In this document: in pieces, positions 2,693 through 53,051 of the stretch
How the letters are laid out: each line of letters begins with the position of its first letter
Position numbering within the stretch: the first letter of the stretch is position 1
Assembly: GCF_023055435.1 (NCBI RefSeq)
Contig: NW_025964223.1
Coordinates: 42,098,001 to 42,162,000 of the forward strand
DNA length: 64,000 bases
Source of the DNA: Haliotis rufescens
Lineage: Eukaryota
Reading direction: 5' to 3'
Notes under the pieces: model-generated
Told to the model about the DNA's origin: nothing
Seen by the model: the letters and a program-made list of their open reading frames with translations, nothing else
The model's database searches: none
Program-made: the position numbers and the translations under genes

Positions 2693-3507
2693 AATCCAAT
2701 TCCATCAAGTCATAATATAAGCCTGGTGTGGCGGTATTGGTATTGTGACGAGATAAGAAACAAGACATTTAGTGAATATATTTAAACGTATTTATTCTAA
2801 ACTATGTTTCATCATCAAATGTGAACGATACAATGACGCCTCAAATATCTAAGTACATTATTCTTTTTACACATCTTTCTCGAAAGCTGTACAACTGATT
2901 TCTATATTTTATTTTCAAATGAAATTATTACAATAAAAAATAACATTATATAATAATACATTATTGCGATTCAACTCCCCACAAATGCGATAACCATGAA
3001 CAAACCTTTAATGCTTCGTTTAGACATTACTTAATTTACATATCATCTCGTGCACTTTGTATAGAATGTGGCTGTTGCCGTTTTACCGATACTTATTTCA
3101 CTGTTTGAAATAACAAAAATATGTTATTAGTATCCTTAAATCGAAGGCCTATTTTTATCAATTTTGGATTTTATCGTTTTTATTGTTTTTCCTGTTACCG
3201 TTTTCGTATATTTTTATCGTTTATTCCATTTTGCAATGATCAGCAAATACAATCAGTGCAGCGATGACATGTGTATACGAGCGTAAGAGACCAATAAGGA
3301 AGTTATTCCGCCTGTCCCCTCTTGAGATTTTGTACAAACTTCGTCGCTACATGGCTGAAGAAATGCCGATGCGAAGTTAATTTTAACCCACTCACTCACT
3401 GTCCCATCTTCACTTGCTGCCTTGCAGGGTGCACGCATGATCATATTCACCGCCGTTACGCCGGCGCGCCATCTCACCCTGCATCCCTCACCCTGACCCC
3501 ACACGCT

Positions 3508-3665
3508 TTACATCAGGCTTGCAGCCCACTCAGTGACCCCGATCATCACAAACCCCAAGAAGGGCACCAGTGCCGGAAGTTGGCTGAACAGTGAGCGCCA
3601 CTTTGTTTCGTGGGAAGGTGATGCTGGAGGCGGGATGGCCATGGCTGCTTCTTCTCTCTCGGTAA
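3508..3665 (-). CDS. CBM20 gene coding exon 3 (Pro-rich linker plus hydrophobic tail)
   Basis: Acceptor TTTGCTTCAG at 3666, phase matches exon 2, stop TAA at 3510-3508. Confidence 0.75.
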
Positions 3666-5655
3666 CTGAAGCAAATGTAAACTTATAACATGATTGTGAT
3701 TTACCTTGTAAACAGACAAATCAAAATGCCAAACCATTCAGTTCACTGGACATCACTATAACATTATATAAAAGTCATATAGTCACGTGGAAAATACATA
3801 GCATGCTCAACGAAATAACGGTGACGATTTCCAGCCTCGGTCTAGAAATCAGAGCAATCTCTAACCGCTTAATTGATCTACATCATTAAATGTGAGTTAG
3901 CAGACCAATATTGCTAATATTGCCAATTGACGCCTTTAAGAAGCAGAGAGTCACTCACCTGCAAAATACTTGTCTTCGACAGTAGCATTTGCGATCCATT
4001 TGGTTGCTACATCCTGAGGCGCATTGCACGTCATCTGGCTGTAGTTGGCGATGTTCACTTTGGTCATGTCGACGTTTCTGTACATGGACACAGGGACACG
4101 GTGTTGGATGAGGGACTCGCTGTTCCATCTGGCTTCTATCACAAGACGCTCACAGTTGGTCTTCAGATGACGGTTCCAGCGCTCCTCCCAGCGTCTGACG
4201 GCTCCAGTCTCAGCGTCCAGAACCACCCACTTCCAGAGGTAGTTGACAGAACAGTCCAGAACAGTGTGAGCAATCCAGCACCCGGACTTATACGGGTTCT
4301 CTCTGGCGCGGATGGCGTTCTCTGGCTCCCAGGACCCGAGACAGGCCTCAGAACCCGCCACAGCCAACACCTCTCCTGGCTGACACTGGTATCGAGTGCG
4401 AATGTCTGCTCGGCATGTGCGGGAGATGAACTGAGAGTGTTTAAGACCCCATCGGACCTGCATAGTGCCGCCGAAGAAGTTCAGACTTGTCCTGCAACAG
4501 TTAAGTTCACACATACACCAGTCAGAAATTATTCAGTGGGAACGAATGTGTCCGTACAATCAGCTCTGTTTGAAGAAGCTGCGGCGATTGCACAACTAAA
4601 CACTGGTTCTAAATTTGGACCGATAAATGTTATTTATCATACGAGAAGAAGTCATGTTTTTGAAAGATCAGGTAAAGATAGTTACATTATTATCCTTCAA
4701 GGACAAAATAAATATCACATTCATGTGTGAAGTAAATCAAATTTATCTGTGTAAAATACGGTAGGTGCAGGATAAACAGTAACAACAATTATCATACATT
4801 AGATGGATTATCATGAGTAGGTACAGTAATAACAACAGAAGGATTATTTTGTAAAAAGATGGGCAGAGAACACGGATGAGGACGCCAATTAAACCGGTTG
4901 GAAAAATACTTAGCTGGGATGATTGGAAAACCTACTGCTAGGTAAATTTACAGTAGGCGGATGGGATGAAACAGCCTCGACCTCTTTATATGTGTACTTG
5001 GGCGTTTCACGATGTACTGATTTGATTTGATACTATATTAACTGATACTTGCCACGGGAACATATAGGGAAGGCTGCTCTTAAGACACTGATTGCATTAG
5101 AGCCTTTTATGGAAATAATTGACAACGTGCCATCAAACGTGTGTATGTTTCAAACACCCTGTAGGCCCTAGTTAAGCTGACGTAAATGTATTTGTACACA
5201 TCGCGGCTGATTTCGAAATAAAAAGGGGTAGGAAAGAAAAACGGACGTATTGTATCCATCGACTTGGGGAATTGAGTTGACACAGTATACCCAACTGATC
5301 ACATCGCAAATCTCATGTACTTGGGTGGAGAATGGTGCATGCTAATAACGAGGGTATGGAAAACTCACTGTCTGTTTCTAGCAGGGTCCCAGTACAAAAC
5401 CTGTGAATCATGCGTTGTCACCAGCCACGACCACGTGAACGTGGCCGATATGGGCAGATAACTCGTCACCTTCCACACGTCCTGCTCTGTCTCCGACGGC
5501 CCGGCAGTCAGCGTCTGAGGGATGTTCCAAGAGCCAAGGTCGGGGATCGAACCCAGGACTCCGAGTTTAACCCGGCTATCCGCTCTCATCGCGGCCTTCA
5601 CACCAGGGGGCAGGCCGTAGACCTGAAACACGACCTGTACAGTCAGGCCTGGCAT
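3508..5655 (-). CDS. Tandem CBM20 (starch/glycogen-binding) domain protein with C-terminal hydrophobic tail, 325 aa; complement(join(3508..3665,3959..4491,5369..5655))
   Basis: CBM20 signatures occur twice: LGVLGSIPDLGSWN..DVWKV..FTWSWLV..YWDPARNR and VLAVAGSEACLGSWE..GCWIA..YLWKWVV..RRWEERWNR. Introns are GT-AG and phase-compatible (CA|GTGAGT..TGCAG|G phase 2; G|GTGAGT..TTCAG|TT phase 1). The last exon encodes VTEREEAAMAIPPPASPSHETKWRSLFSQLPALVPFLGFVMIGVTEWAASLM*. Confidence 0.85.
3959..4491 (-). CDS. CBM20 gene coding exon 2 (second CBM20 domain)
   Basis: Acceptor TGTTGCAG at 4492 and donor GTGAGT at 3958; lies within ORF 3951..4514. Confidence 0.85.
5369..5655 (-). CDS. CBM20 gene coding exon 1 (first CBM20 domain)
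   Basis: MPGLTVQVVFQV...WDPARNRQ; donor GTGAGT at 5368. Confidence 0.85.
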
Positions 5656-5842: not shown

Positions 5843-7141
5843 TTTGTGAAAGCAACGAGCAGCAGCACTCTGCTCGTCCCAGCCCAATATGACGTAGTCT
5901 GATGAATGAGAAATGTGTACCAGTGTTTTGTTTGTTGTTCAACGTAGTCTGTAAATAAGCGAGTTTGGATTAGACAATCCAGTGACAGACAGCATGAGCA
6001 TCGATCTAAGCATTGGGATACGATTACATGCATCAACTAAGTCAGCGAGCCTGAACACCCGATCCCGTTAGTTGCCTCTTACGACAAGCACAGTCGATCA
6101 AATGTGGCTACATATTTTAGAGGCTTTTTCGAGAGCAAAACAGAAACTTGGACAACATTTAACACTTTCAACCAGTCTTTCATTTTTCCACCATGGAGTT
6201 AAAAATTCAGTAATATGCAACTCGGTTAAATTGGAAAGTCAGAGGTTGACCCAGTACCAAGCAACCGCGATTCTCGCACAGCGTTGATTTTTCAAAACTA
6301 TGCGTCTGAACATAAACTCGGCACCCAGGATCCCATCGGTAATGTAGTAAATCACAATCAGACCCGAGTTGTATGCAACTCGCCGCCGTATGAATGGCGA
6401 GTTTTATACAACTTCAGTCCGTACAACTTATTGCATACAACAAATTGTATACAACTAGTTGTACCGTGTGAATGCCCCTTTAGTCCCCTCTTACGACAAT
6501 GCATGGGTTGCTGAAGGCAGTTCTGACCCGGATCTGCGACCAGCCGAATATACCGATTTTCCTACCAGCACATTTATTATTTCTTCGTTCCATTGTGATA
6601 AAATACTCTTCACCACGCAACTGTAGGGTCCCGACCTAAAGACACAACCTATAAAAAAACCGTCCAAGCAAATAACCCCGTTCTTTCACAGTTGAAACAA
6701 GCTGGAATTACACCAGAACTAGACTCAATTTGTTGTGTGTCACCTCAAGTACAACTTAGGACACCCTGTAGCACAAGGACAAACCTTCCGTTGTCTTAAT
6801 ACTCAGAATAAAACATTATTTCCAGCTAAAACATTATTATAACTATCTTGTAATTTGATTAATAGCTACGAAGGCTCGCTCTTACGAGGCCTGAAATTTA
6901 AAATTAGATGTATGCCTAAGTCCCGTTCAGAAGAGCCGTTCTGATTGATTGTTGATTTCAACCTCATGACCGAGAGACATTCTACGCAAAGTTGGTGAAA
7001 TGTTTGTCGATAAGATTTTAATCGGGTTATTTATTTACAAAATATGTTTAATATATATGCGTTTAAAATATTACAATAATGACAACCAAGTGACAGGGGA
7101 GGAAATATTCCCTCTTGGCCTGCAGAAACTGCATGATGTAA

Positions 7142-9006: not shown

Positions 9007-9117
9007 ATGGCTGCGCCCTTGACAAGGCATGTGCCGGTTTGTGTACCAATGTTGCAACAGATTGGATTGTTATCCAGATTGTCAACAAGCACAAACCCAG
9101 ATAATAACAACAAGAAG
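9007..9117 (+). CDS. WARS2: WARS2 exon 1 (mitochondrial targeting peptide)
   Basis: AAAATGGCTGCG start context; donor AAG|GTACAT. Confidence 0.8.
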
Positions 9118-12100
9118 GTACATCCATCATATAGTGAGCTGACGCGTTATTAATCGTATTTAATTATAGAAAATGAGACCTACGTGTAATATGTCTGTCC
9201 TAATTTCGATCACTTTAGATCTTCAAAATTGTATTTCTGAATTATATTGGGAGTAGCTTGGAGACTTTGCCAGGGCCAGGGTCTTTAAATATGAGTCTTA
9301 ACTGATAAGAACACCCACCTAATATACACATCGTCATAGGCACGATACGCAAGCATACGAAAAAAACCAAATTGTCAGCTTTAAATTATCTTTGTTTGAA
9401 AAAGAAAAAAAACAAAACACCACGCCCCTTCCATCGGTACAAAAACAGTTTGTATCATGGGGACACAACACTGTTTGCACGAGTCAGATAGTCATGAACA
9501 AGTGCATGTGCACAAATTGTTTCAGTTACTATAAGAGGCCAGTGTTATACAGCCACGTTTAAACAAGTGTTAGTCACAGCTCCAGGTGCATATTTGCATA
9601 AAATATGCAAATTAAATCACCATAATCCAATCAATTTTGCGTTGTGTGCCCACAAGTACACATGATAAAAAATTAATAACCGAAATGAAATATATAGTAA
9701 GTAAACAACAGGCACATGTACAACACTGTATTTCCCAGTATAGCATAAAATTTTCAGCTTGCGTAGGCATACACGCATATATATTTAAAGATCTTTACTT
9801 ACTGACTGAATACAGGCATCATAAAAATACATGCAGTGAATTATCCACAGAATAGAAGTAAAATTAATTTCAAACATGTCATTGTTGTACAAAACCCAAG
9901 AGGGTAAAACTATATTGAATACCAAATAAAATAAGTATCAACATGATCAATACCCAATCTGAATGATAACATCATAACGTGAGTGAGTATGGTTTTACGC
10001 CGCTTTTAGCAATATTCCAGCAATATCTCCACAGGGGACACCAGAAATGGGCTTCACACATTGTACCCATGTCGGGTGTTTGGCGTGACGAGTGAACGCT
10101 TTAACTATCAGGCTACCCAACCACCCTTGTGAGCAAATGACAAATGCTAAAACAATTCTCTTGAGCACTTGTTAGTTGTTTGTTTTCTAAACGTTCCACT
10201 CCATGTGACAAAAAGTCTGTAGAGGATTGTTGGTTGTATATACTGAGCTGTAGATAAGCTTTTGGTTATTTGGGTATTTTCCCCAGGGTTTTGATTTTGA
10301 TTGGGTATTAGTAGTGGGACGATATTCCGATGCATCGCTGGATTGCGATTTTTTACTTCTCGATACAAGTATCGATCACAATCGCACACTAAGTAAAAAG
10401 TATCAATTCTTACCTAATATGTATTTTTTGATAAATGTTACACCAGTCATTGGATTACTAGTGACAATAAGTAGTGAATATGTTCATATTTTCATCCACT
10501 GCGCCATACTTGACACTGCCAACTGTAAATTGTTAGTGTGCAAGGTATTTGGCTGTCCTGTCTATTAAAAAAGATGGCTTACAGACCACAGCTAAGAGCA
10601 CATGCAAGTATCGTGATACATATTGGATCGTGAGCAAGGTATCGTGATACATATCGGATCGCACAGTTGGTGTATCGTCCCAGCCCTATTGGGTATCCAC
10701 AATTTTAGAGGGTATTCAAATCTTTTTCACCCACCTGTTTCTTGACATTTGGGTATTTTAACTTAAAATCTGTTTTGGTACATTCCCCTTAATCATTTAA
10801 AACTATGTGAATAGTTGTATAACCGCAATGATAACCCGCTGATACACAATAATGTTTTCTGACAGTTGTAATATATGCAATTTTTTATCTAATAGCTGTA
10901 ATTTTATTTCAATAGCTTGTTTATAGATTTTGCTTTAAAAGAGTAAAAGAGAAAGAATTGCTAACTAACAGATGCAATTCTTTTTCAGGCTTCCAAGTTT
11001 GCACATTGTCCCCGAAGAGTATTTTCTGGAATACAGCCAACTGGCATCCCTCACATAGGCAACTACGTTGGCGCCATTAAGAACTGGGTTCAGCTGCAGA
11101 AGAAGTATGATGATGTCATCTTCAGCATCGTAGACCTCCATTCAATAACAGTACCTCAGGATCCAGCTGGCCTCAGGTGTGACATCCTTACAAGCCTTGA
11201 TGCTGTCATGTTTATAGGACCCGTGAAGATCCGGGGTAGAATAGGTCTTCAGCAACCCATGCTTGCCGTAAAAGGCGACTATACTTGTCGTAAAAGGCGA
11301 CTAATGGGATCGGGTGGTCAGGCTCACTGACTTGGTAGATGCATGTCATCGATCCCAATGTGGATTGATGCTCATGATATCAATCACTGGATTGTCTGGT
11401 CCAGACTTGATTATTTACAGACCGCCGTCATGTAGCTGGAATATTGCTGAGTGCGGCGTTAAACAACAAACCAACCAAAGCAATGTCATGTGTATAGAGG
11501 CACAGAGGTCCAGTCGGCCAATCTGCAATGAAGACTCCCCAGGACTCCCCAAATGTTGTTTCAAATCCTTACTCATTTTCTGTTTGTTCGCCCAACCAAG
11601 GCCCAGGTTTAATTCCCATATTGGCCATGATATTTCTAAAATTGACATAAAAACATACTTTATCACTCACTCAGATGTTATGTCAATCAACATGGTAATG
11701 TTTCCTGTGAGAATTCATGGAAAAAACTTCTAAAGATTTACCATTTTTCTGAGAATATCTTTCAGTTCGAACCTGTGGGGATGCCTGTGCCCAGCACCCT
11801 ATGTTTGTGATAGACACGACTAAATGGATCAGATGGCCAGACTCTGTTACGTGTTTGACTACATGTCTTTGTATCTCAACTGTGTAGATCGATGTTCATG
11901 ATGTCAATTACTAGATTTATTAGTCTTCTTCAGACTCGATTATTTACTGACTGTTGTTTAGTAGCTGGAATTTGCTGAGTACAGCATAAAACAACAAAGA
12001 AACAAAAAACAAAACCTTTAAAGTTCAACAGTCATAAAATCCAAGGTAGATTAGGTCTTCAGCAACCCATGCTTGCTGTAAGAGGCGACTGAGCTTGTCG

Positions 12101-18100: not shown

Positions 18101-20027
18101 TCAGAAATTACAATGACATGATCAGCTGGTCACACACCACTCTTGCAACAATCATGGGATAACATGAGATACCTACAGGGTAGGTTGTTGGATGAATTAT
18201 TCAGAAATTACAATGACATGATCAGCTGGTCACACACCACTCTGGCAACAATCATGGGATAACATGGAATACCTACAGGGTAGGTTGTTGGATGAATTAT
18301 TCAGAAATTACAATGACATGATCAGCTGGTCACACACCACTCTGGCAACAATCATGGGATAACATGGAATACCTACAGGGTAGGTTGTTGGATGAATTAT
18401 TCAGAAATTACAATGACATGATCAGCTGGTCACACACCACTCTGGCAACAATCATGGGATAACATGGAATACCTACAGGGTAGGTTGTTGGATGAATTAT
18501 TCAGAAATTACAATGACATGATCAGCTGGTCACACACCACTCTTGCAACAATCGTGAGATAACATGGAATACCTGCAGGGTAGGTTGTTGGATGAATTAT
18601 TCAGAAATTACAATGACATGATCAGCTGGTCACACACCACTCTGGCAACAATCATGGGATAACATGGAATACCTACAGGGTAGGTTGTTGGATGAATTAT
18701 TCAGAAATTACAATGACATGATCAGCTGGTCACACACCACTCTGGCAACAATCATGGGATAACATGGAATACCTACAGGGTAGGTTGTTGGATGAATTAT
18801 TCAGAAATTACAATGACATGATCAGCTGGTCACACACCACTCTGGCAACAATCATGGGATAACATGGAATACCTACAGGGTAGGTTGTTGGATGAATTAT
18901 TCAGAAATTACAATGACATGATCAGCTGGTCACACACCACTCTGGCAACAATCATGGGATAACATGGGATACCTACAGGGTAGGTTGTTGGATGAATTAT
19001 TCAGAAATTACAATGACACAATCAGCTGGTCACACACCACTCTTGCAACAATCATGGGATAACATGGAATACCTACAGGGTAGGTTGTTGGATGAATTAT
19101 TCAGAAATTGCAATGACACGATCAGCCGGTAACATACCACTCTGGCAACAATCATGGGATAACATGGAATACCTACAGGGTAGGTTGTTGGATGAATTAT
19201 TCAGAAATTACAATGACACGATCAGCAGTCACACACCACTCTTGTAACAATCATGGGATAACATGGAATACCCACAGGGATGAATTGTTCAGAAATTACA
19301 ATGACACGATCAGCCGGTAACATACCACTCTTGCAACAATCATGGGATAACATGGAATACCCACAGGGTAGATCATTGGATGAATTGTTCAGAAATTACA
19401 ATGACACGATCAGCCGGTCACACACCACTCTTGCAACAATCATGGGATAACATGGAATAACTACAGGGATGAACTGATCAGAAATTACAATTCCTTGAAA
19501 TGTATGGAGACTGGTACAACTTCGTCCTCAAACACAGCATGATTGTAAATGTTTCATTCTTTGTTATCTTCTCTTCAGGTGATGCACCAAGGATCAAAAG
19601 TTTGAGAAATCCAGAAAACAAAATGAGTAAATCAGAACCAAATGCAAAAGGTCGCATCGACCTGACAGACAGTCCCGATGAGATCCGAGAGAAGATAAAG
19701 AAGGCAGTCACTGACTTTACAGCAGTGTTGTCCTATGAGCCCGAGGAAAGGCCAGGTGTGTCTAATCTGATTGACGTCCACTCCTCGCTCACTGGCCTGG
19801 TGCAGGAGGAGATATGCGAGGAGAACATGTTGTTGAGTAAAAGTGACTATAAAGCCAAGTTGGCTGACATTGTCATTGAACAGTTGGCTCCAATTAGAGA
19901 GAATGTGCTGAAACTAAAGGGAGATAAGTCTCACCTGGAACAAGTGTTGAAAAGTGGGAATGAGAGAGCCAGGGAAATAGCGGAAGAAACTATGAAGGAA
20001 GTGAAGAAGGCTGTAGGGTTGTCATGA
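9007..20027 (+). CDS. WARS2: Tryptophanyl-tRNA synthetase, mitochondrial, 370 aa; join(9007..9117,10989..11176,12332..12413,14192..14272,14983..15065,16881..16999,19579..20027)
   Basis: Bacterial-type TrpRS motifs: [17 protein letters not shown] (HIGH-like), [65 protein letters not shown]. The N-terminus MAAPLTRH... has an acid-poor, presequence-like composition. All six introns are GT-AG with consistent phases; total 1113 nt. Confidence 0.96.
9979..10125 (-). mobile_element. tRNA(Asp)-like SINE family C
   Basis: Tail AATATTGCTAAAAGCGGCGTAAAACCATACTCACTCAC; body GGGTACAATGTGTGAAGCCCATTTCTGGTGTCCCC. Confidence 0.8.
10309..10688. mobile_element. hAT-type MITE with 8-bp TSD (WARS2 intron 1)
   Basis: TSD TTGGGTAT at 10301-10308 and 10689-10696; ends TAGTAGTGGGACGATA / TATCGTCCCAGCCCTA. 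Confidence 0.75.
10989..11176 (+). CDS. WARS2: WARS2 exon 2 (HIGN motif)
   Basis: [37 protein letters not shown]...[14 protein letters not shown]. Confidence 0.95.
11218..11478 (+). mobile_element. Short retroposon family B (no tRNA head)
   Basis: GACCCGTGAAGATCCGGGGTAGAATAGGTC start; tail AATATTGCTGAGTGCGGCGTTAAACAACAAAC; degenerate TSD TGTCATGT.TATAG. Confidence 0.88.
12030..12290 (+). mobile_element. Retroposon family B
   Basis: Matches family B consensus. Confidence 0.8.
12332..12413 (+). CDS. WARS2: WARS2 exon 3
   Basis: [27 protein letters not shown]; flanked by TTTCCAG and GTAAGT. Confidence 0.95.
12541..13050. mobile_element. MITE with GGCGGATCCA-type ends (WARS2 intron 3), probably with a nested insertion
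   Basis: CGGTGGCGGATCCAG ... TGGATCCACCCCTG inverted ends. Confidence 0.5.
14192..14272 (+). CDS. WARS2: WARS2 exon 4
   Basis: [27 protein letters not shown]; flanked by ATCAG and GTAAGT. Confidence 0.93.
14460..14729 (+). mobile_element. Retroposon family B
   Basis: Full length; TSD ACATG.TAAATA. Confidence 0.88.
14983..15065 (+). CDS. WARS2: WARS2 exon 5
   Basis: [28 protein letters not shown]; flanked by TTTCAG and GTAGGT. Confidence 0.95.
15122..15290 (+). mobile_element. SINE family C
   Basis: GGGTAGCCTTGTGGTT A box, GGTTCAATTCC B box. Confidence 0.82.
15694..15917 (+). mobile_element. Retroposon family B
   Basis: Matches consensus, with an internal deletion. Confidence 0.82.
16189..16426 (+). 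mobile_element. Retroposon family B, 5'-truncated
   Basis: Matches consensus. Confidence 0.82.
16881..16999 (+). CDS. WARS2: WARS2 exon 6
   Basis: [39 protein letters not shown]. Confidence 0.95.
17800..19490. repeat. Intronic tandem repeat, 100-bp unit, about 16-17 copies (WARS2 intron 6)
   Basis: Unit ATCAGCTGGTCACACACCACTCTGGCAACAATCATGGGATAACATGGAATACCTACAGGGTAGGTTGTTGGATGAATTATTCAGAAATTACAATGACATG repeated head-to-tail; central copies near-identical, edge copies diverged. Confidence 0.97.
19579..20027 (+). CDS. WARS2: WARS2 exon 7 (KMSKS motif and anticodon-binding domain)
   Basis: [21 protein letters not shown]...VKKAVGLS*. Confidence 0.96.
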
Positions 20028-21091: not shown

Positions 21092-22471
21092 TTAGTTCAG
21101 GAAATGCAGCAATGTGTGACCTCCTCCGCTTTCAACCATTGGTTTATCTATTCCTCCTTTGCTATCAACCAGTAGTTTATCTGACCCTCCTTCGCTATCA
21201 ACCAGTAGTTCATCAGGCCCTTCTTTGTCATCACCCAGTTGTTTATCTGGTCCTCCTTTGCCATCAACCATTAGTTTATCTGGCCTTCCTTTGTCATCAA
21301 CTAGTTGTTTATCTGGCCCTTCTTTGTCATCAACCAGTTGTTTATCTGACCCTCCTTTGTCATCATCCAGTTGTTTATCTGGTCCTTTGTCATCAACCAT
21401 TAGTTTATCTGGCCTTCCTTTGTCATCAACTGGTTGTTTATCTGGCCCTTCTTTGTCATCAACCAGTCGTTTATCTGACCTTTCTTTGTCATCACCCAGT
21501 TGTTTATCTGACCCTCCTTCGCTATTAACCAGTAGTTTATCTGGCCCTCCTTTGTCATCAACCAGTAGTTTATCTGACCCTCCTTCACTATCAACCAGTT
21601 GTTTATCTGGCCCTTTTTTGACATCAACCAGTAGTTTATCTGGCCCTCCTTTGTCACCAACCAGTTGTTTATCTGGCCCTCCTTTGTCATCAACCCGTAG
21701 TTTATCTGACCCTCCTTCTCTATCAACCAGTTGTTTATCTGGCTCTTCTTTGTGATTAACCAGGAGTTCATCTTGCCCTCCTTTGTCATCAACCAGTTGT
21801 TTATCTGACCCTTCTTTGTCATCAACCAGTTGTTTATCTGACCTTTCTTTGTCATAACCCAGTTGTTTATCTGACCCTCCTTCGCTATCAACCAGTAGTT
21901 TATCTGGCCCTCCTTTGTCACCAACCTGTAGTTTATCTGACCCTCCTTCGCTATCAACCAGTAGTTCATCTGGCCCTTCTTTGTCATCAACCAGTTGTTT
22001 ATCTGACCCTTCTTTGTCATCAACCAGTAGTTTATCTGGCCCTCCTTTGTCACCAACCTGTAGTTTATCTGACCCTCCTTCGCTATCAACCAGTAGTTCA
22101 TCTGGCCCTTCTTTGTCATCAACCAGTTGTTTATCTGGCTCTTCTTTGTCATTAACCAGGAGTTCATCTGGCCCTCCTTTGTCATCAACCAGTTGTTTAT
22201 CTGGCCCTTCTTTGTCATCAACCTGTAGTTTATCTGACCCTCCTTCGCTATCAACCAGTAGTTCATCTGACCCTTCTTTGTCATCAACCAGTTGTTTATC
22301 TGGCCCTTCTTTGTCATCAACCTGTAGTTCATCTGACCCTCCTTCGCTATCAACCAGTAGTTTATCTGGTCCTTCTTTGTCATCAACCAGTTGTTTATCT
22401 GGTCCTTCTTTGTCATTAACGAGGTTTATATGGTTTATCGAGATAGTACCAGCATATGCTAAAAACATCAT
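21092..22471 (-). other. 459-aa repetitive ORF (DDKEGPDKQLV)n through the 33-bp minisatellite; coding status unproven
   Basis: ATG-to-TAA open frame across the whole array, but several other frames are also open, so this may be a by-product of the repeat. Confidence 0.3.
21130..22430. repeat. 33-bp minisatellite, about 39 copies
   Basis: Unit approximately CTTTGTCATCAACCAGTTGTTTATCTGGCCCTT, with a few recurring variants. Confidence 0.95.
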
Positions 22472-23978
22472 CTTTGGTCATAAGTGTGTTGAAAGAGGTT
22501 CTCTTGGAGTTGAACATTTTAGCCAATTTTATGATAATTTTTGTACGGTATATGCAAACCTTTCCTTGATTGTATAATTTCAGATTTCCAGCGATCTGTA
22601 AAGGGCCCTTATCGTACCTCTTCCTTTACTGATTGTGTGTTGAAGGGTTAGTCCATCCAATAGATTGATGTGGATGTTAAAAGTACTACAGGGTTTTCTA
22701 GTTCAAGTGTGTTCGGATGTACAAAATGAGTGCTGAATATGGATAATTCCTCAGATTTGGCTGATGAAGATGTTTCCTTTCGCCTCACGGCATATATCAA
22801 TGTTCACACTGTTGATCACTCGCTTGGCAGCGCTCTGTAGACCACGTAAGTAGAAAATACGCTGACTGCAGGATTAACTTCAAACAAGCACCACTCCCGT
22901 TCCTTATTTTTTTTAAACAAATCTTTTTCACGAAAGTATCTACTTCTACACAATTATGCTAAAGATCTAAGGAAGTGTTGAATGCTAGACTTATCAAAAG
23001 TACCCTTTACAGCGAGATAATTACATTTACGACTTTTAACTTCCCTGTACTGAAAGCCAATGCATGTACATCGGCAAGTTCATAAATCAAACTTGAACCG
23101 TTTCATGTTTTAAAGTGTGTTTTTACATAATATTACATTTCACAGACACTTCAACCGACAACACTCCAATTGCTTTACCAACCCGCACGAAGTTTGACTA
23201 GAAAGATATTTACTTACTCTGTGTCAACAAGAACCTTTCATTTTGCCGAGATGGGGATTATGTTTCAAGTTAAAGTAAGTTGACAAAGCATTTAGGGACT
23301 AAGTACATTTAAGGAGAACCAAATACTCAAGAAAAAATAGAGGCTTTATTTTGATATATTGTTCTCGTACTTTACACGAGTGCATGTGGTTATCTTTCTG
23401 CCCTGCTTTGAGAAAGTGACCTGACTAATCGCTGCCTAAACAATATGACACAAGGCGAACAAGAATACGTGAAACTTAAAACCATTCAGAAATTCACAAG
23501 CTGATTCTATATTCGCCCTAAGCTATTCAAACACGGCGTTCACCAATTATCAGAAGTACAATCTTGACCACTTGCTTCTACAGGACTTGTTTAACTGATC
23601 GGTACGATTGCGTAAAGCATGTTGTGTACACTGATCCGACAGGGTTTTCTTTAGAATTATAAACGTATTTATCGAATGCTGTCGTACCCTGTGTATAGTC
23701 AGACGCAAGACGGTTAAGTGAATTTTTTAAAAAGGGACTGTCGGTCATGTTCAGAGTACAGGATCATATATTCTCCATGTTCCAATTGTACACCTGTGTG
23801 CTTGTGTTTGGGATTTCTTCCCACGGCGTTTTCGACATTTAGGTCGAAAAGACATACAGTCTACGTTTACGTGATCGGAATATGATATTAGATCTCCAAA
23901 TCATCGAAAGACTATGTCTAGCTGCCGTCAGACTGTAATTGATTTGTGAAGAGAGCAACAATTAGCATCAGGGACGCA

Positions 23979-24878
23979 ATGGATGATCTGTCGTACAAGC
24001 TCCAGGTGTTTCACACTGTTAACGAATATAAGGCCCATCGTTTAAACAGGACCGAACAGTGCAAACTTGAATCTGCTCGGACCTTGATCCATAGGGAGAA
24101 GACTCTCTATGAGAAAGACTTTCAGCTTCGAGTTCAGAAACTTAAAACTCGACAGCAAGAGATGAAAAGGGACGTGGATGTAGGCACTGATGACGAGAGG
24201 AAGGAGTTGCCCGATTCAGCGAGATCGTCATCGCTTCGATTCAGGGGCTGTAAATCTGCTCGCCTACCTAAGAGTGAGGAGTGTTCTCTATGTGACCGGA
24301 TTACTGACATAGTTCTTAAGTACGAGGCAGAGAAGCGTCCAAAGAACACAGCAACGTATTCCACGTCTACGAATCTGCGCCAATCTGACAGCCATGTCAG
24401 ACAGTTTCTGGAGTCTATAGAAACAACGGTGATGCCTTTGAAGTGGGACGTTACCTCTGGGAGTTTTATGGATGCTGGAAGAATAAATTTAGACGGACGT
24501 TGCAAAGATGGGATGCTTAGTATGAAGACTGATAAGAACCCAGATATAAACCCATCTCAGAAAAGACTGATCAGAGAATCCACCAAAATGCTTCCACCAG
24601 ACGACATGGGTCACGTGTGTACGACCTTGACCTCGGCCAAAAGTCGACGAACGTTTCCCGCCAAGATTGAAATTCAAAGGAAGGTTGGCGAGTTTGTACA
24701 GTCACAAGAGGTGTACAATAGGTCGAATCCTATCAATGAAGACATCGTTGTTCAGTGCGAGGCCTTTCGTCTCCATAGCGGCAACAGGGTGGACCGAAAA
24801 CCACCACATTTCGTCAGTAGGCGGGAAGCCATGATTTCTGAAGTCTTGGAGAAACTAGGAATGACAAGAGCCAACTAG
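23979..24878 (+). CDS. Uncharacterised single-ORF protein (299 aa), N-terminal coiled-coil; orphan family member A
   Basis: Long non-repetitive ORF in AT-rich DNA; shares VFHTVNEYKAHRLNRTEQCKL and IQRKVGEF motifs with ORFs at 46264 and 53052. Confidence 0.75.
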   Translation: MDDLSYKLQVFHTVNEYKAHRLNRTEQCKLESARTLIHREKTLYEKDFQLRVQKLKTRQQEMKRDVDVGTDDERKELPDSARSSSLRFRGCKSARLPKSEECSLCDRITDIVLKYEAEKRPKNTATYSTSTNLRQSDSHVRQFLESIETTVMPLKWDVTSGSFMDAGRINLDGRCKDGMLSMKTDKNPDINPSQKRLIRESTKMLPPDDMGHVCTTLTSAKSRRTFPAKIEIQRKVGEFVQSQEVYNRSNPINEDIVVQCEAFRLHSGNRVDRKPPHFVSRREAMISEVLEKLGMTRAN

Positions 24879-28164: not shown

Positions 28165-31100
28165 ATGGAGAATATCCTGAAGTTGTTTTGGCTTATGTTT
28201 TCCTATAATCAGATATGCATGGGTAAGTTTCGATACCTTCAATTCTAAATATTGTACCTACAACTGTAATTGTACATTCAGCCATGGGTGGGAAAAATTA
28301 TCGATTGTTATTGGTCATCAGGTCCAAATCACACTAACAACCTCTGTTTGAAACAAATAATTTAAAGGCTGCATCAGCTCACAAGTTTTCTCACCAAGTG
28401 TCGGCAGACATATTGAAATAATGCTATGTACGATTATATGTGACGACACTGGCCAGAAAACACGACATAAAGCTAGGACTTTGAGTGTCCAAGGTTAAGT
28501 AACATTGGAGCGCTGGAAATTATAGTAGTTTTGCATCCGACCATGACGTCATATTTTCAGCGTCACAATGAGCGACGTGAAGTCGTAACAAAGACGTACT
28601 GTGCAGAGCTAAACTTGGAAAGGCTTGCTCACGTTGTTTACTGGTGCCCATTTATGTTGTTTACGAAGTAGTAATGTGTAATTACACTCTTTTAATGCCT
28701 GTCACGCATGGGGATAAAGTACACTGATGCAAGGTATCAATATGTGTTGGCACATACAGCGCCTTTGCGTTGAAAGACTATCATCGGCTTTTCCTTGAAT
28801 CAGATCAACAGCCCACAGCTACGTGTTCGGTGCCAAATTCAATTTTACGCAGGTAAATCTACTGGTAACCTAGCGCTACATTTAAAGGCACAGCATGTTT
28901 ATCTCCAAAATGTGTCTTCACATGTATGATACAATCGAGACAAATAAGCGACACGAATGACGTTTTAATCAACGAAAACATAATTTCACTTATGATGTAT
29001 TGCAGCTTTCACGGATACAAAAGGAAGAACATTTTCTCTGGCATTCTTTCCCGAATACATCACTCCTGCAACAAGTGATCTTCGAAACATTCTGTACTTC
29101 TCATCCACCCTTGACGGTGGTTGTACTGTGAACTACAATGACGGGACAAGACATCAGACTAATGTGCATGTTATCGCGGGCGATGTGGTAAAGCTGGCTT
29201 TACCTGACACAACACAGCTCCTAACTGGAACAAGAGTTGAACATAAGGCCATTTATGTCAACTGTTCCACCGAAATAGCTCTTTATGGCCACAATAAATA
29301 CGCTCTTGGGAGAGACACCTCAGACGCATTCACTGTTTTGACAGATGAAATGTTGTCAACGGATTATCTCGTTGCAAGTGTCGAGAAAACTGCAAACCTT
29401 GGCGTTGTGGCCACGCGAGACAATACTACTATTTCAGTGACCCTCAATGCAACATGTGATTATGTATTCAACAGTGTACGATATGGAGATGGAGATACAG
29501 TCAGTGTTACACTTGGTTATGGTGACGTATTTCAGTTAGGTTTAGCATCTACAGATGGTAAATGTGATTTAGGAGGAACCCGAATCCATTCTAATCATCA
29601 AGTCGCAGTGTTTTCTGGGGCTTTGTATGTCTGGGAACTTGACCTTGCTGCAGGTCACATGGTCAGTCAGGTTCCTCCAGAGAATGCATTTACGAAAACA
29701 GTAATTGCACCTAAAGTCGAAACTGATGAACCAGGAGGAATGACGTTGCGTGTATTGGCACGTGAGAACAATACAGTTGTGACTATAACAAGGGAAGAAG
29801 CAAATGGGACGATAGTGACTTCGTCTACATCACTGAATACAGCAGAGTTTGAAGACATCAATTCCGATTTAAGCGCTGACGTCATTGTACAGAGCAACAG
29901 GCCGATAATGTGTATCCAGAACATCTATTTCAGAAGAAGAGGAGGTTCGTCATTGTTTGTGCCAGGAACGGACCTTTATGACAACAACTACATTGTAGAG
30001 AGTTTGGATTTGGATGGCGTGAGCTCAGATGGCCCTTTTATTACTATCATGTCAGAGGTGTCATCATTTATGGATGTTCGTGTAAATGGCCAGCAACGTG
30101 ATGATATCAAATGGACTAATCTCACCACGGTACCATACGCTGTTGGCGTACTAAGGATACAACCCAAACAACCGTATGTTGTCAACAGTTCATCACCAAT
30201 CCTAGTCAGGCTTCACGAAAGATTATACCTGGAGTCATATAGCTACAATGCAGGATATCGTCTTCCATCTTTTCCAAAAAAGCGTAAGTTTAATATCCTT
30301 TTTTAGAATTGTGTTCTGTGCGAAGTTGATGACATACTATCATACTACTTTTACGATTCCCAAATTTAAACGCGGTGGTAACCCCGAAATCGGTACGTAC
30401 TGAACTAGATTGTGAAATTAGTAAATTACCCCCCAAGATCAATGAACAGTCAACACATTGTATTGACGTACACCGGATCAGGTTTACAATAATCATAAAC
30501 ATCAATACAGTGGATCAAAATATTTGGCAGTAGTGATATACAATAGCGAGATAATCCCAATTACATAAGTCAGTGCACTCACGGCATGGATAAAGAATTT
30601 ACATTACACTATGACAAATACCCGGTTGCATTTTAACAGCTTTGACAAGTAATTTTTTTTTATTTGTCTCACATGGTCTCGCACGAACTTACAACAATTC
30701 AGTGGAGGCACTGCAGTATTCTGGCAGACATGTTGAGTAAATGTTTCAGTAAACTTTGAGTAGACATAACCAAACGTGCATTAATAACGGACAGAGGTTA
30801 AGTTGGAACTTAGTAGGATTGAATGCAATATTTTGTCATTGAAACACCCTCTGATAAGCGTAGCATGTTGAGCATCAGAGTGGGAGGTACCATTAGCATT
30901 ATGAGTGAGAGACACGTACTCAGTAATATGTGATGGGGGTCAATGCATCGAAAGATTGTATATACACCTGGTTATACAATGACCTATAGCTCGTCACATT
31001 GCCTGCGTCATTCGTTTCTCGTCGTACCAGCGTACACCACCATGGCCTGTACAGCTACTGGTTCACCGGACAAGGCAAGACAAACGTGACTAAGTCATTG

Positions 31101-33954
31101 CATTTCAATCAAATAACTTAAATATTCCCTGAAGAGTCATTGATATGGTTTTCGTGTTTTTGCGTTTGTTCATTTGTAGGTTACCCTGTGAATTATATTT
31201 TTAACCTTAAAACCGGGATTTGTCTTCCATGTTATATAGCTTAATAAAACCACATGACGTCTCCAATGAAAGTTAAATGAACGTCATTGCAAATAAAAGT
31301 GACAAAACCATTTCCATAGCCACGAGAAATCTTTGTTAAAAGCAGAGTCGTTCTTAGCATACGATTAAATATGTAAACATGTCCTATCAACAGAACACTG
31401 CCGATCATTACAATGTAAGCCGCCTTTGGCATTACGCCAGTAATATGACGTCGGTTTGACGAACGAATGAACACTTAAATGAATAGGCTACCCAAACGCC
31501 TCTTCGACACACTGAGCTTGTATATATTGTCTGCTATGAAGTGTTAGAATAATAAGTGCTAATTGTGTGTACATATTTTGTAATTACTTACTTCATTGTT
31601 AATTAAGCACTAACTTGGCACCTGTATGTGTTCAATATACCCACCTCTACTTGTATTTCTACTGAATGCATACACCTTCTACTTGTTCCAGTAACAAATG
31701 CCATCGAACTCAAATGCTTAGCAAAGGGCTGGTTTGTGACGCTAAATGTAGATGTATTATACAACGTTACCCTGTCTCACATCTACATGGGGCAGAGCAA
31801 GTGTACCGGAACACTTCATGGGAATCAACTCATATTCAACCAGTCTTACACTGAATGCCATACAGAAACAAGTGTAAGTACACATGGATGTGGCAACATG
31901 TTTCTTTGAATACCGTATGGTATCAATAGATGCAGCATATGTAATTGAAGTGCAGCAACCATGCTAGGTTCTAACCCTCTACTAACAGGCAGCTGCTACA
32001 GTTATGTAATCGTTTTCTAACGCTATCAGTACCATAAGTTACAAACGAGTTCCATTTGTGCGATAAACACAAGATCATACCAATTGACGACAGGGGTGTC
32101 GCGTAAAAACCTTTGTAAATGACTTCATCAATAGTGGATCTTGCCGAAACGATTGGTAAAATATTCGTTTATAAGGGCCGGCATGGTCCGAAACAATGAC
32201 AATTTGAGGGAGTCTTGACCGCTCCCCTTGCAGCACGTGGCTCAGTTCGACTAACGTAACGGGTGGCCTTTGACGTCGCCGTAAATGTGTCCCGAGCATG
32301 TCCCAGACGTGGAACGTGCATGTCCTGAGCATGTTTCAATGGTGGAAATGTCAGGACGATACGTGCACTGTGGGCACGAACATTATCGTCTAGAAAGACA
32401 ATACGTGGACCAGCATTGTGCACAAACCACACACTACTGGGCCAGTGGGTTCTTTCAGTAGGCCGATAAATACCATTTTGTGTCTGAAAACCTGTTCTAA
32501 AGTCTGTAGGTCAAAGACGAGACACATTAAACATTTTGGCTACTTCTCGCTGAGTTCTACGAGTTTGAAACATGGCAATAGCCTAAAGCGTCTATCACAT
32601 TGAAGACAACCCATTCCCAATCTGATCTCAAATACTGCATTAAAGTATGAGTAGAGAGCTAACTTGTCTCTCTGGATAATGAAAATCAACAGAACGAATG
32701 GCCCAGAGCTAATTGACGACATTTCACTGAAATGTCAAAAGCAATTATCACCCCTACCCACGTGCACCCACATACAATGTTTTGGGTGTCATGGGGAGAT
32801 AGGTGTCCGTTCTCAAGCCGTTCAATCTCTAGCAGACATTTTTTCAAAGCTGATCGTATTTCTGTCTACCGATGAAAAGATATATATTTCATGATCCCTA
32901 CTATATTTTGAGAGTAAATGTTTATATGTCTGAAATTCAGCAACACTGGGAAGGATACATATCATATTTCAAAATCAGTCTTCATAATTTGCATGACAAC
33001 CTTTTTGTCTATCATATTAATAATTTGAACTCATTTCCAACCGTGTATGTTCATGTACCCTTTCTGTGTCTTAATGTTCTAGGTTTCCAACGGCATGGTT
33101 ATGTTCAAGAATAGAGTCATGTTTGTGGCTCTGTCCCCTGACAATGTGGTCAGACATGTCATCTGGCTGCACAGCATCAGTTGTTCGGAACCAGTGGATG
33201 GAACAAATGCTGTCCTCATTTATCCAGATTTCAATGAAACAGTAACTGGTAGTTCCACTGGACACATACAAGGTCCCAGCTTCGACATATCTCTTTTCAA
33301 AGACGCTTCATATCAGCATCTATTTTCTGGCAACCATGCCCAAGCTAAGATCGGAGAGCCAGTGTATGTTCAGGTCTCCTCATCCGTTAGTCCCAACACC
33401 ATCATGGTGTTGCGTTCCTGCGACGCCCAAATCGGCAATGGGAAAGAAGTACCTCATCCTCTGATTGAAAATGGGTAAGTATGATCTATCATTGGATTTA
33501 TCAAAAAGGACAAGATGGTTACTTTAAATAAAGTATAAATGATATAAATGATTTCATTGGATTTATCAAAAAGGACAAGATGGTTACTTTAAATAAAGTA
33601 AGCAATTTGACAATATTGATGGGGATCCTTGAAGACGATATTTTGTAACATCCGAACAAAAGAGCATGACAATTAACTCTATGTGGCACTGTTTGCTGTT
33701 GTTGTTTAACGTAACAGTCACATTAACTATGTAAATATGTAAATAATCGACTCACAACGATGTGCGGTCACACGCAAACACCTAGTAACCTTGCCATTCG
33801 ATCCAAGTAGTCGCTTCTTACGACAAGCTTAGGATTCAGGGGACCTATTCTCTAACCTGGTTAAGTGGCTGCATTTTCAAAATATAGTTGTATGTTTAGA
33901 AAACTCATTGGACTTTGTGTAACCATGCGTACAACATTGTACTTATTCAGTACA

Positions 33955-46263: not shown

Positions 46264-47406
46264 TTATGATGTCGAAGTGGTTGTTCTTTTGTACTCCACA
46301 TCATGACATGTCTCGGTCTTTGTGGAAAATCCACATATTGCAAGGTGACGCACATAATCAGACACTTTATCCTGGCTGTCTTGGAACCTCAGCTTTTCAG
46401 ATGTCAAAGCGTTCTTCAAATTACGAGTCGGGTTGTAAAGAGATACCAATTTACTTTCAGCAGGGATCACCTTGGAAGGATCGTCCAATGTTGTCCTCGA
46501 CCTCAGAAAGGAATATTCTGGATTACTCCATCGTACTTTCTTGCCCGAAGCTTTCTTTTTGGATAAAATGGATGAACTGACACTGTTATGCCCGTGCGAA
46601 TCTTCCCTATTATCCTGTATGGAAGCACCAAAGTCACCATTCCGTACATTGTCAGATATATCTTGTTTTGAACTGTCTTTTAGTTGGTGAAGATGTGAAC
46701 CATTGTCAGCCGCTTTAATCCGATCATCCTGTTCCTTATCAACGTTCAACTTAGTGTGATACTGTAAATCCGGAACACGGACAGGACTCGTCTCCAGCCT
46801 TTTATACCCAACTGTACTCTGTGCCTCTCCGATGTAACGTCTGAGACTGCTATTTCTGTGCAAGGAGGAATGTGTAGTTTGCCTGGTCGGGGTAAGTTGT
46901 ACCATCGAGGTTTGTCGTTCGGGTGAAGACGCTACTATGCATGATAAAGTGTCATCCCCAACAGGTGAACATTTCAGTCCAGTAATATTTCCCACATGTC
47001 CCGACTGTATTGACCGATGACGAGGCATCTGCTTGTAGTTTCCCCAAACACAGAACTTCAAGGGTGTTAAATGAGGAAATCGTGTTGAATGTAACCGGAA
47101 TCTCAGCGCATCACATCTAATCACCCGAGATGAATGCTGTTTATGTAATCGGATGTCATCCAGATCAGAATTTAACTTACTCTGTATGATTTTGTTTTTC
47201 CTGTATGCATCTCTCTCATTATCGCTCCAGAACACAGCGGGTGGTGGCAGTCTCCTCTCGTCCACTGCAAGGTGGAACTGAGACTTCCTGTCTCTATCCG
47301 AGCCATGTCTCAAGAAGCTTCTGCTGCCGAAACCACTGGTAGAGTTCCTGGTCATTGCCAACATCTGTCTCGACTCCGGCCGTCTGCTATGGTATCCATC
47401 GTCCAT
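46264..47406 (-). CDS. Uncharacterised single-ORF protein (380 aa); orphan family member B
   Basis: Intact ATG-to-stop ORF; motifs VFWSDNERDAYRKNKIIQSKL and SQDKVSDY; two decayed paralogs nearby. Confidence 0.78.
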   Translation of the reverse strand: MDDGYHSRRPESRQMLAMTRNSTSGFGSRSFLRHGSDRDRKSQFHLAVDERRLPPPAVFWSDNERDAYRKNKIIQSKLNSDLDDIRLHKQHSSRVIRCDALRFRLHSTRFPHLTPLKFCVWGNYKQMPRHRSIQSGHVGNITGLKCSPVGDDTLSCIVASSPERQTSMVQLTPTRQTTHSSLHRNSSLRRYIGEAQSTVGYKRLETSPVRVPDLQYHTKLNVDKEQDDRIKAADNGSHLHQLKDSSKQDISDNVRNGDFGASIQDNREDSHGHNSVSSSILSKKKASGKKVRWSNPEYSFLRSRTTLDDPSKVIPAESKLVSLYNPTRNLKNALTSEKLRFQDSQDKVSDYVRHLAICGFSTKTETCHDVEYKRTTTSTS

Positions 47407-48689
47407 CCCTCGTTATGTGCGGGGATAATGCCACTAATTATCGTGTCTCTAGCTAACGTGGATGTTAACAAAATTATTTTAAAATAATCGTTTTTCCAAA
47501 ACGATTGTCGGATCCTCCAGATCCTCAGTATTCAGTCTTCAGGCGTACGCACAATATAGACAAAGCTACCCAGACAGTGTAATGTGTGCGTCTGGACACC
47601 TACCATTTACCTTGGGCTTATATGAGACACCCATAATCATTACCTAGATTTCAAAATCTTTATCTTGTTAATATACTACGACCCATGCCGAGGAGTAAGG
47701 AATACGTACAAGACAAATGATTAAATAATCTAGCTAAAGTACCCTCTCTTGTCAATAATCAATAAAGTCGATATCGATGATTAATGGCCACGTATCGATA
47801 AAACAAATAATATAGATGCATATTATATATATATTAACCAGATGAATATTACAGTTGATAATATTTTTCTGCTTTGATACATACATATACTTACAAATCC
47901 TGGGTACTTCTTAATTTTATTATTTTGATTTACATGAGGAGTGTAATGAAAACGAGAGCATTAATTTGACAATCTATACATAACTATTATTGTTCAATGC
48001 TGGGATAGATTATTAATGTGTTCTTTCAACGTGACAGGATGTTGTGTGTGATAACATGATTACGAACTTGAAAATTTAAGATGTTGCTACCCAAACCTCC
48101 ATTCAGTTTATGTATATCAGATCCTTATCAATTCAAGCCGGAAAAATTAATCACCTTGTGTGACTAGAGATTATGCCGGGGACAATTAATGGTGACATGC
48201 ACTGATCCCAAAGGCAAATATTGATTCTTTCGGTGATTTACCTCCGCCAAGACAAATAGGATTATATTTACCATTCGAGGAAATATTGATTGAAAACCAG
48301 CGATCAGGTAATTGGAGATTGACTAGGTATAATGTTAATAGCCATCTCAGCATGATCCAAAATATTATATGACAATTTTTCACAACGCAGTAGTCACATA
48401 GGTGACAGTTGGTAACATGTATTTACTCCATATCGTTGATTGATAATATAGCTCATGGGCCATGGCGCGAAGATAGAGCGTCAACCTTATCAAGCCATGG
48501 ATTTCGCATGTTATCTATGCTGGGACGTATTGTGCCCTCAAGTACCTATTATCTTTCATTGAATGACATGCTGTGAGTGTTCTTGGGCAATAACGTTCTT
48601 GACATTAATCCTACATGTATGTGACGACTGATAAATGTTATTCCAAACATATATAAAAATCACCTCTGTAAATTAGTTTGCCGTACCAA

Positions 48690-52063: not shown

Positions 52064-53051
52064 CTACATCAGAGAGCACATGTCATTACACCAGAAAGCA
52101 CAATATACTTTACCAGAGTGTTACTATATTCACACAAGACAAATATGCACACTTTGGGAAACTACAGTTCAGTTCAAATAGGGTCATTCGGACGTAACAT
52201 GCACTTTACTATTCCTTTAAAACACCAACCGCACAAAATGCACCATAATGTCCTTCTAAACTTCTAAGGGCCGCTGACACAGTGATCACGGTAGCCCTTG
52301 TATCCTGACATCCCGACAATGTTAATGTACACTCATGTCAACACGTTGTATCGTGGTGTACCGTGATCCCTGATAAGCTGTTGACAGCATACAGGCGAAG
52401 GCTGAGGGTCTGCAGATGCCTCCTTCTCACCGATACAACATATCTCTCACGCCACAGAGGGGAGGAAAGACTTTTATCAAAGCATATCATAAACCATCAT
52501 AAAAGCGTCATATTATGCGATAAGCATTTAAGATTGTCCCTTAATAATCCCCATAAATCGGTAATGGCTGGTGACAGAAGCTTATTTATAGAAAAATATT
52601 TGCCGATAGTCAACATCTTGTCCTACCTTGTTATCAATGACTGCTTCAGACTGTAATAAAATCTGGCTAATTTGATAGCAATTCTCCGATTATCAAGCAC
52701 TTGACTTGACGCTGCCAGGCCCTTGGGAAAGGTAGCGACATATCATTTTGTTGGCTTCCTGCAAGCGACCTTTGACTTTGGACTTGAAATACCAACACAG
52801 GTAAGCAATACAGTAGGAAACTTAAAGCCCCTCTTAAAATATCAAGTGCTCCGATAAAGAAGGTATAAAGGGCACGGAATACACTTGTTCCTACACTAGT
52901 GGCGTGTCACTTCAGACAAAATGTTCATCTTGCTGTGATTGTTACCACGACGGTGATATAAGATGTTGGACTTCATGTGTCTGCCTTAACAAGAACTGTG
53001 TCGCGGTGAATTTCATTGAATTTGTTTTCATGGATTAAGCAACAAATAACT

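Follow-up and report, generated by a model that had tools for sequence, protein, structure and literature searches.

A two-CBM20 STBD1-gamma-class protein of Haliotis rufescens with a predicted C-terminal membrane-binding helix

The 64,000-nucleotide stretch of Haliotis rufescens DNA analysed here (the window) carries on its minus strand a gene for a 325-residue protein with two CBM20 domains, a linker and a hydrophobic C-terminal tail. The reading we prefer, and hold to be somewhat more probable than its negation, is that this STBD1-gamma-class protein would bind glycogen mainly through its second CBM20 domain, be held at a membrane by its C-terminal helix, and hand glycogen to autophagy through a weak ATG8 contact. 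In such a mechanism domain 2 would grip glycogen by both of its sugar-binding sites, as in human STBD1, and domain 1 would bind weakly or play a structural role. The tail would insert into or rest on the ER or phagophore membrane, like the C-terminal helix of yeast Atg45, and the ATG8 contact, if made at all, would be a weak one through which glycogen is passed on. The preliminary description of this DNA had proposed a membrane-anchored glycogen adaptor, and the core of that idea stands, as a non-catalytic, STBD1-related protein with apparently unequal domains and a tail that is likely to bind membranes. Its novelty, its convergence with STBD1 and its two named LIRs are not supported.

Gene structure and the two CBM20 domains

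The gene is made up of the following features, given in window positions:

5369..5655, minus strand: exon 1, codons 1-96, encoding most of CBM20 domain 1 and ending in a phase-2 GT donor
4492..5368, minus strand: intron 1, 877 nt, GT..AG, skipped in X1, X2 and X3 contigs
3959..4491, minus strand: exon 2, codons 96-274, encoding the end of domain 1, CBM20 domain 2 and the start of the linker
3666..3958, minus strand: intron 2, 293 nt, GT..AG, interrupting the V274 codon, skipped in X1, X2 and X3 contigs
3508..3665, minus strand: exon 3, codons 274-325 and the TAA stop, encoding a Pro-rich stretch and the hydrophobic tail
2900..3507, minus strand: probable 3' UTR, with contigs on 2900-3443 and one contig running from 3629 past the stop to 3426

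Translation starts at an ATG at 5655, and the spliced coding sequence of 978 nt gives 325 residues, all of which (325/325) are identical to the H. rufescens RefSeq protein XP_046325485.2 (LOC124110282; P0003). At the predicted sites both introns are absent from contigs of three of the four runs examined (X1, X2 and X3; 24 runs were listed), and the stop codon is crossed by a single X2 contig (3629 to 3426). The X1-X3 contigs come from two studies, and that they are RNA is a software guess; the run search turned up none recorded as RNA, a blank that carries no information about expression. Because they differ from the locus by a few letters per 100, they would come from relatives or paralogues. 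The spliced contigs, from three of the four runs examined, contain no extra enzyme exon and continue past the stop codon, and candidate polyA signals lie at 2791, 2908, 3179 and 3220. Thus the exons, the GT-AG introns, the RefSeq identity and the intron-skipping contigs all agree with the three-exon product first proposed for this locus. The gene is real, looks expressed and is already catalogued. An alternative acceptor at 4485, which would give a 323-residue product, was dropped since contigs and RefSeq favour 4491. Separately, one X8 contig (depth 5.4) omits 432 nt at 3660-4093 with plus-strand GT..AG ends, and may reflect a spliced transcript from the opposite strand or an artefact of assembly.

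The Pfam CBM_20 profile matches the spliced protein twice, at 37.3 bits in exon 1 and 42.1 bits in exon 2 against a cut-off of 23.3, the two matches that had been expected. A Pfam scan of the whole protein returned no family besides these two stretches, and no phosphatase or GDPD catalytic domain. AlphaFold, run on a 32-row alignment, gave two confident beta-sandwiches (block pLDDT mostly 82-96 up to residue 230; pTM 0.61) followed by residues 232-325 at pLDDT <50, in keeping with the original claim of a doubled CBM20 protein that lacks a catalytic domain. In Foldseek the domain 2 model superposes on the CBM20 of human STBD1 (8x8k) with TM 0.92 and rmsd 1.4 A, and on that of GPCPD1 (2z0b) with TM 0.80 and rmsd 3.1 A; bacterial CGTases outrank 8x8k in Foldseek E-value. 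In a sequence search of solved structures, 8x8k was the best among five matches for domain 2.

The CBM20 of human STBD1 has two sugar-binding sites, site 1 formed by W293, K322, W334 and N339 and site 2 by H271, Y272, R333 and W355, and site 2 is described as not conserved in laforin or GPCPD1 (PMC11406230). Mutation data in the same paper cover N339, R333, H271 and E336, but not K322. We located the equivalent residues in an alignment of 166 domains:

4113..4421, minus strand: CBM20 domain 2, residues 120-222, with site 1 W150/K183/W197/N202 and site 2 Y130/R196/E199/W218
5428..5430, minus strand: S76, replacing the site-1 lysine in domain 1

Domain 2 has all four human site-1 residues and retains three of the four site-2 side chains (Y130, R196 and W218), with the histidine replaced by R129 and E199 present at the position of E336. 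Domain 1 keeps three of four residues at site 1 (W43, W89 and N94), and at site 2 W110 is the sole residue retained, the arginine being Y88. The serine noted earlier in place of the usual lysine does fall at the site-1 lysine position. Among related two-CBM20 proteins, 17 of 18 first domains lack this lysine and 16 of 18 second domains have it, as do 118 of 130 other domains; the rows behind these counts are related and do not represent independent events. A quick tree of 70 rows groups the 12 first domains at 90 and the 12 second domains at 98, a pattern that suggests a single ancient duplication; the named two-CBM20 members of these groups include Haliotis, Lottia and Lymnaea. Unequal binding by the two domains is therefore a prediction that the alignment supports, with the sites of domain 2 kept and domain 1 degenerate, and the conserved degeneration of domain 1 may be new.

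The linker and the C-terminal tail

Three features between domain 2 and the stop codon bear on the adaptor model:

3959..3968, finished in exon 3, minus strand: LIR-like core YFAV (residues 271-274), a weak candidate
3589..3600, minus strand: LIR-like core WRSL (residues 296-299), in a basic context and overlapping the start of the tail; unlikely to be a LIR
3532..3594, minus strand: predicted membrane-binding helix of the tail, 21 uncharged residues (298-318) with seven more residues after it

The linker had been called acidic, but its composition is balanced overall, with eight D/E, eight K/R and six P in residues 223-298. Both LIR-like cores are present as letters, but such cores occur near chance frequency (three in the 80-residue linker, 223-302, where shuffling predicts 1.1; P=0.07) and the two are not retained in sister paralogues. 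YFAV, which is immediately preceded by a lysine, is retained in 9/9 close Haliotis sequences that are at least 79% identical overall, and Y271 is a proline in 7/7 sister paralogues. At position 296, three of five H. asinina copies have leucine in place of the tryptophan, and the sister family has Tyr or His. An extended-LIR pattern has no match in the linker, a weak negative given that three vertebrate-type STBD1 controls likewise gave no match in their linkers. Modelling of residues 231-300 in complex with P0166, a limpet GABARAPL2 stand-in 93% identical to the abalone exon searched, scored 0.02 and 0.10 where the mark is 0.34, in a run whose controls were not folded, and weighs neither for nor against contact. 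Abalone has four ATG8 proteins, and the two-CBM20 protein may still bind ATG8, because oyster STBD1, which likewise has loose cores only, co-precipitates GABARAPL2.

The letters that are conserved in the linker, F-x-[VI]-T-E, are out of LIR register. Read by eye as an FFAT or a PxIxIT site, YFAVTE fitted the consensus poorly. As a separate observation, a post hoc motif, F-x-[VI]-[TDN]-[EL] (window 3959-3968 plus 3658-3665), recurs in the two-CBM20 linkers of Haliotis and Lottia (P0011, P0026 twice, and P0027); the linker pattern F[AVT][VI][TDN][EL] is found in 4 of 63 proteins against 0.23 expected, a circular comparison in that the pattern was built from those four.

The weakness of the LIR evidence and the out-of-register linker letters would both suit a tether or scaffold that has no part in autophagy and holds glycogen at the ER. 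Mammalian RGL/PPP1R3A at the sarcoplasmic reticulum offers the same order of parts, its glycogen-binding domain lying at the N-terminus and a hydrophobic segment for that membrane at the C-terminus (PMC2214798). However, the abalone protein has no RVxF PP1 motif, and the single tested mollusc homologue, the oyster STBD1 with its CBM20 at the N-terminus, binds glycogen, co-precipitates GABARAPL2 and acts in glycophagy (Ren et al. 2026, PMC12913940). We regard an autophagy-free tether as unlikely.

In the adaptor that we favour, the tail would supply the membrane contact. Its KD19 maximum is 1.90 at residues 299-317, and the moment is low (0.23) over the most hydrophobic window; nor is its hydrophobic moment significant (p=0.10). 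All eight further full-length close relatives, drawn from three Haliotis species, keep the tail, with KD19 of 1.45-1.92. Its summed insertion cost in the abalone protein comes to 4.3 compared with -1.8 to 3.1 for five vertebrate-type STBD1 anchors, the abalone tail contains two prolines and one glutamine, and the uncharged stretch shrinks to 16-17 residues in two relatives. AlphaFold placed no confident helix in the tail. In the sister paralogues, where the last intron sits at the place matching intron 2, the homologous tail is charged and amphipathic (KD19 0.78, moment 0.55, shuffle p=0.03), and because of this we put a true transmembrane anchor in the abalone protein at about an even chance. 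On these measures the tail is about as likely to be a monotopic membrane helix as a weak tail anchor. Thus the tail anchor of the preliminary description holds as far as a hydrophobic C-terminus goes, whereas anchoring itself, with its marginal insertion cost, is borderline.

The marginal insertion energy, the prolines, the charged homologous tail of the sister paralogues and the absence of a tail from other paralogues could instead indicate a soluble glycogen adaptor, in which the hydrophobic tail would serve self-association or protein binding and not membrane insertion. Oyster STBD1 is indeed published as soluble (PMC12913940). Against this stand the 21 uncharged residues of the abalone tail and the clear transmembrane-type tails of the limpet and clam relatives P0045, P0110 and P0047, and we judge a soluble adaptor decidedly improbable.

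Tails were also surveyed across the family. Our homologue search, over 1.84 billion representatives, returned 115 matches, from which the tail survey started with 63 animal-side proteins, excluding vertebrate-type STBD1 and two unplaced rows, counting close copies of the abalone protein once and adding oyster STBD1. Removal of the 25 of 63 with fewer than 45 residues after the last CBM20 left 38. C-terminal helices were found in 18 of these 38, ten transmembrane-like and eight amphipathic. Among internal windows taken from these proteins 5 of 193 scored likewise, and among non-animal-side tails 0 of 22, "non-animal" here being a label from tree side and Pfam context and not from taxonomy. At two stricter cut-offs, 14/38 and 11/38 tails score against 0/193 internal windows, and among source-named proteins 12 of 15 tails score. 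All cut-offs were set post hoc with the tails already seen, and some unnamed rows may be intron read-through. The other 20 of the 38, including long pulmonate-type proteins, are without such a tail, as is the two-CBM20 paralogue family P0015. The last 45 residues of oyster STBD1 contain an amphipathic helix (moment 0.54, shuffle p=0.035) that meets the loosest cut-off only; P0033 clusters with the experimentally tested oyster gene LOC105333128. The third AIM proposed for the oyster protein (177-180; PMC12913940) falls within this helix.

A C-terminal membrane helix, predicted in about half of the animal relatives, may be new. The pattern resembles yeast Atg45 and, as far as tail predictions go, questions the published view of mollusc STBD1 as soluble. 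A bolder reading, which we offer tentatively as possible and not as probable, is that lophotrochozoan STBD1, the tested oyster protein included, is not free and soluble and instead bears an overlooked C-terminal membrane helix, ranging from amphipathic to fully transmembrane. The ancestral bilaterian receptor would then have been Atg45-like (glycogen domain, linker, membrane helix), vertebrates would have flipped the whole topology rather than gained an anchor, and in the abalone lineage the amphipathic helix would have become a tail anchor that follows a working and a degenerate CBM20. If the tail does bind membranes, the published claim that mollusc STBD1 has no hydrophobic region and acts free in the cytosol would be corrected, and the account of vertebrate STBD1 would change from gain of an anchor to a swap of ends. 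Glycogen handling matters to abalone and oyster quality in aquaculture. There would also be a second reading of the domain-swap mutant in PMC12913940, since relocating its CBM20 to the C-terminal end shifts the tail helix as well.

Copies, published classes and origin

The H. rufescens genome gave 31 matches to the abalone protein and 15 to the Pfam family, and the CBM20 family in abalone turns over quickly. Birth-and-death patterns are common in recognition families. Together with the 31 matches, several of which have stops or frameshifts, and the five and seven near-copies annotated in H. asinina, this could suggest a fast-turnover, expanded abalone family that has departed from glycogen turnover, for example to sense other alpha-glucans. 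Domain 2, however, retains the STBD1 glycogen branch-point site, and the protein is likely to be cytosolic because its N-terminus is the CBM20 itself, without a hydrophobic leader; we find such a departure very doubtful.

Two near-copies lie about 1.4 Mb away, at C445:43513330-43516076 (L017, L020 and L030) and C445:43499089-43500610 (L018, L027 and L057). One of the two has stops in exon 1, around which the RefSeq model P0010 (292 aa) appears to be spliced, losing most of domain 1, and in the other exon 2 is frameshifted. The exon for the hydrophobic tail is kept in both. Further CBM20 copies or fragments, several with stops, are found on C223, C2, C1, C135, C179, C334, C556, C605, C24, C35 and C615. 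Within the window, a very high-copy repeat, covered by thousands of contigs, lies at 5950-6100, about 300 nt upstream of the start codon. Head to head with the CBM20 gene are class I Trp/Tyr tRNA synthetase exons at 10968-11330 and 19473-20024 (plus strand); the synthetase is probably mitochondrial TrpRS, with a possible start near 9030. An IgGFc_binding domain ORF at 28996-30303 (plus strand) is followed by a ZP-C domain ORF at 33083-33475 (plus strand), and the two are possibly one secreted protein. Long open frames with no Pfam match occur at 21095-22477 (minus strand; a repeat-rich stretch open in several frames), 23943-24875 (plus strand), 46267-47412 (minus strand) and 53010-54446 (plus strand).

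The class to which the protein belongs has been described. Ren et al. 2026 (PMC12913940) report lophotrochozoan STBD1 with an N-terminal CBM20 and name the two-CBM20 class, which occurs in the razor clam (Sinonovacula) and some gastropods, STBD1-gamma. Their table tallies two alpha, four gamma and one GPCPD1 for H. rufescens, and their alignment has seven H. rufescens entries, XP_046325485.2 among them, with a row that covers domain 2 only. As the species table lists no accessions, we infer from its two CBM20 domains that XP_046325485.2 is an STBD1-gamma. The inverted, doubled CBM20 layout is thus already in print as the STBD1-alpha and -gamma architecture and, contrary to what had been supposed, is not new, and the family assignment itself adds nothing for a protein already catalogued. 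According to the same paper, oysters lack the hydrophobic region of vertebrate STBD1, and mollusc STBD1 binds glycogen in free form; its authors ran TMHMM. A keyword search of its main text and six supplements found no mention of a C-terminal hydrophobic or amphipathic tail, which may be drawn in the supplementary-figure PDF, and further literature listings showed no other paper on such a tail. A side match from the homologue search, the 5420-aa P0012 of Lineus longissimus (XP_064623499.1) with eight CBM20-like stretches, matches the STBD1-delta class of PMC12913940.

An independent origin from another CBM20 protein, converging on the adaptor role, had been thought possible. Room for it is left by CBM20 trees of about 105 columns with modest support, from a sample without laforin or GPCPD1, and by a reviewer of PMC12913940 who questioned the deep evolutionary scenario. 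Homology with STBD1 nevertheless appears to fit better than convergence, which is unlikely because the STBD1-specific site 2 is kept in domain 2, the published tree (PMC12913940) places such proteins within the STBD1 clade, and our own trees fit homology without proving it. In two quick trees (105 columns, without laforin or GPCPD1) animal CBM20 domains split from the rest at 95 and 85 SH-aLRT, with the STBD1 domains of molluscs and of vertebrates on the same side in each. The best solved match of domain 2 is the human STBD1 CBM20, ten vertebrate STBD1-type proteins (one of them named) are among the 115 matches, and a Pfam scan of 113 of the 115 (P0002 and P0012 left out) detected neither a GDPD domain nor a laforin phosphatase domain. 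We give an independent origin hardly any credence.

Comparison with known systems

The closest system is the published STBD1-gamma of gastropods and Sinonovacula (PMC12913940), which is of the same class, with two CBM20 domains and no enzyme domain. Oyster STBD1-alpha (LOC105333128) shares with the abalone protein the N-terminal CBM20, the same site-1 residues, loose [YF]xx[LVI] motifs only, and a predicted helix within the last 45 residues, which in the oyster is amphipathic and not uniformly hydrophobic. It differs in having one CBM20 and 194 residues, and its glycogen binding and GABARAPL2 co-precipitation have been tested experimentally (PMC12913940), whereas the abalone protein is known from sequence. 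Vertebrate STBD1 (STBD1-beta) likewise has CBM20 sites 1 and 2, as in abalone domain 2, is non-catalytic and carries one hydrophobic end. In contrast to the abalone protein, its transmembrane helix is N-terminal, its LIR is an acidic W-type one of solved structure, and its single CBM20 is C-terminal; the first 40 residues of the abalone protein, where the CBM20s begin, reach a KD19 maximum of only 0.96 and hold no transmembrane helix.

RGL/PPP1R3A differs from the abalone protein in having a PP1-binding domain and in being much longer. Its glycogen-binding domain is a CBM21. Yeast Atg45 has a glycogen-binding N-terminal half and needs both its AIM and its C-terminal amphipathic membrane helix (PMC11145338), and it shares with the abalone protein the order of parts: glycogen-binding half, candidate AIM, C-terminal membrane helix. 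It is different in its length of 189 residues and in that its AIM and helix were tested by mutation, and its authors found no sequence homology to STBD1 (PMC11145338). With Atg45 and RGL as precedents, a glycogen domain followed by a membrane helix, as predicted for the abalone protein, is a topology already known to biology.
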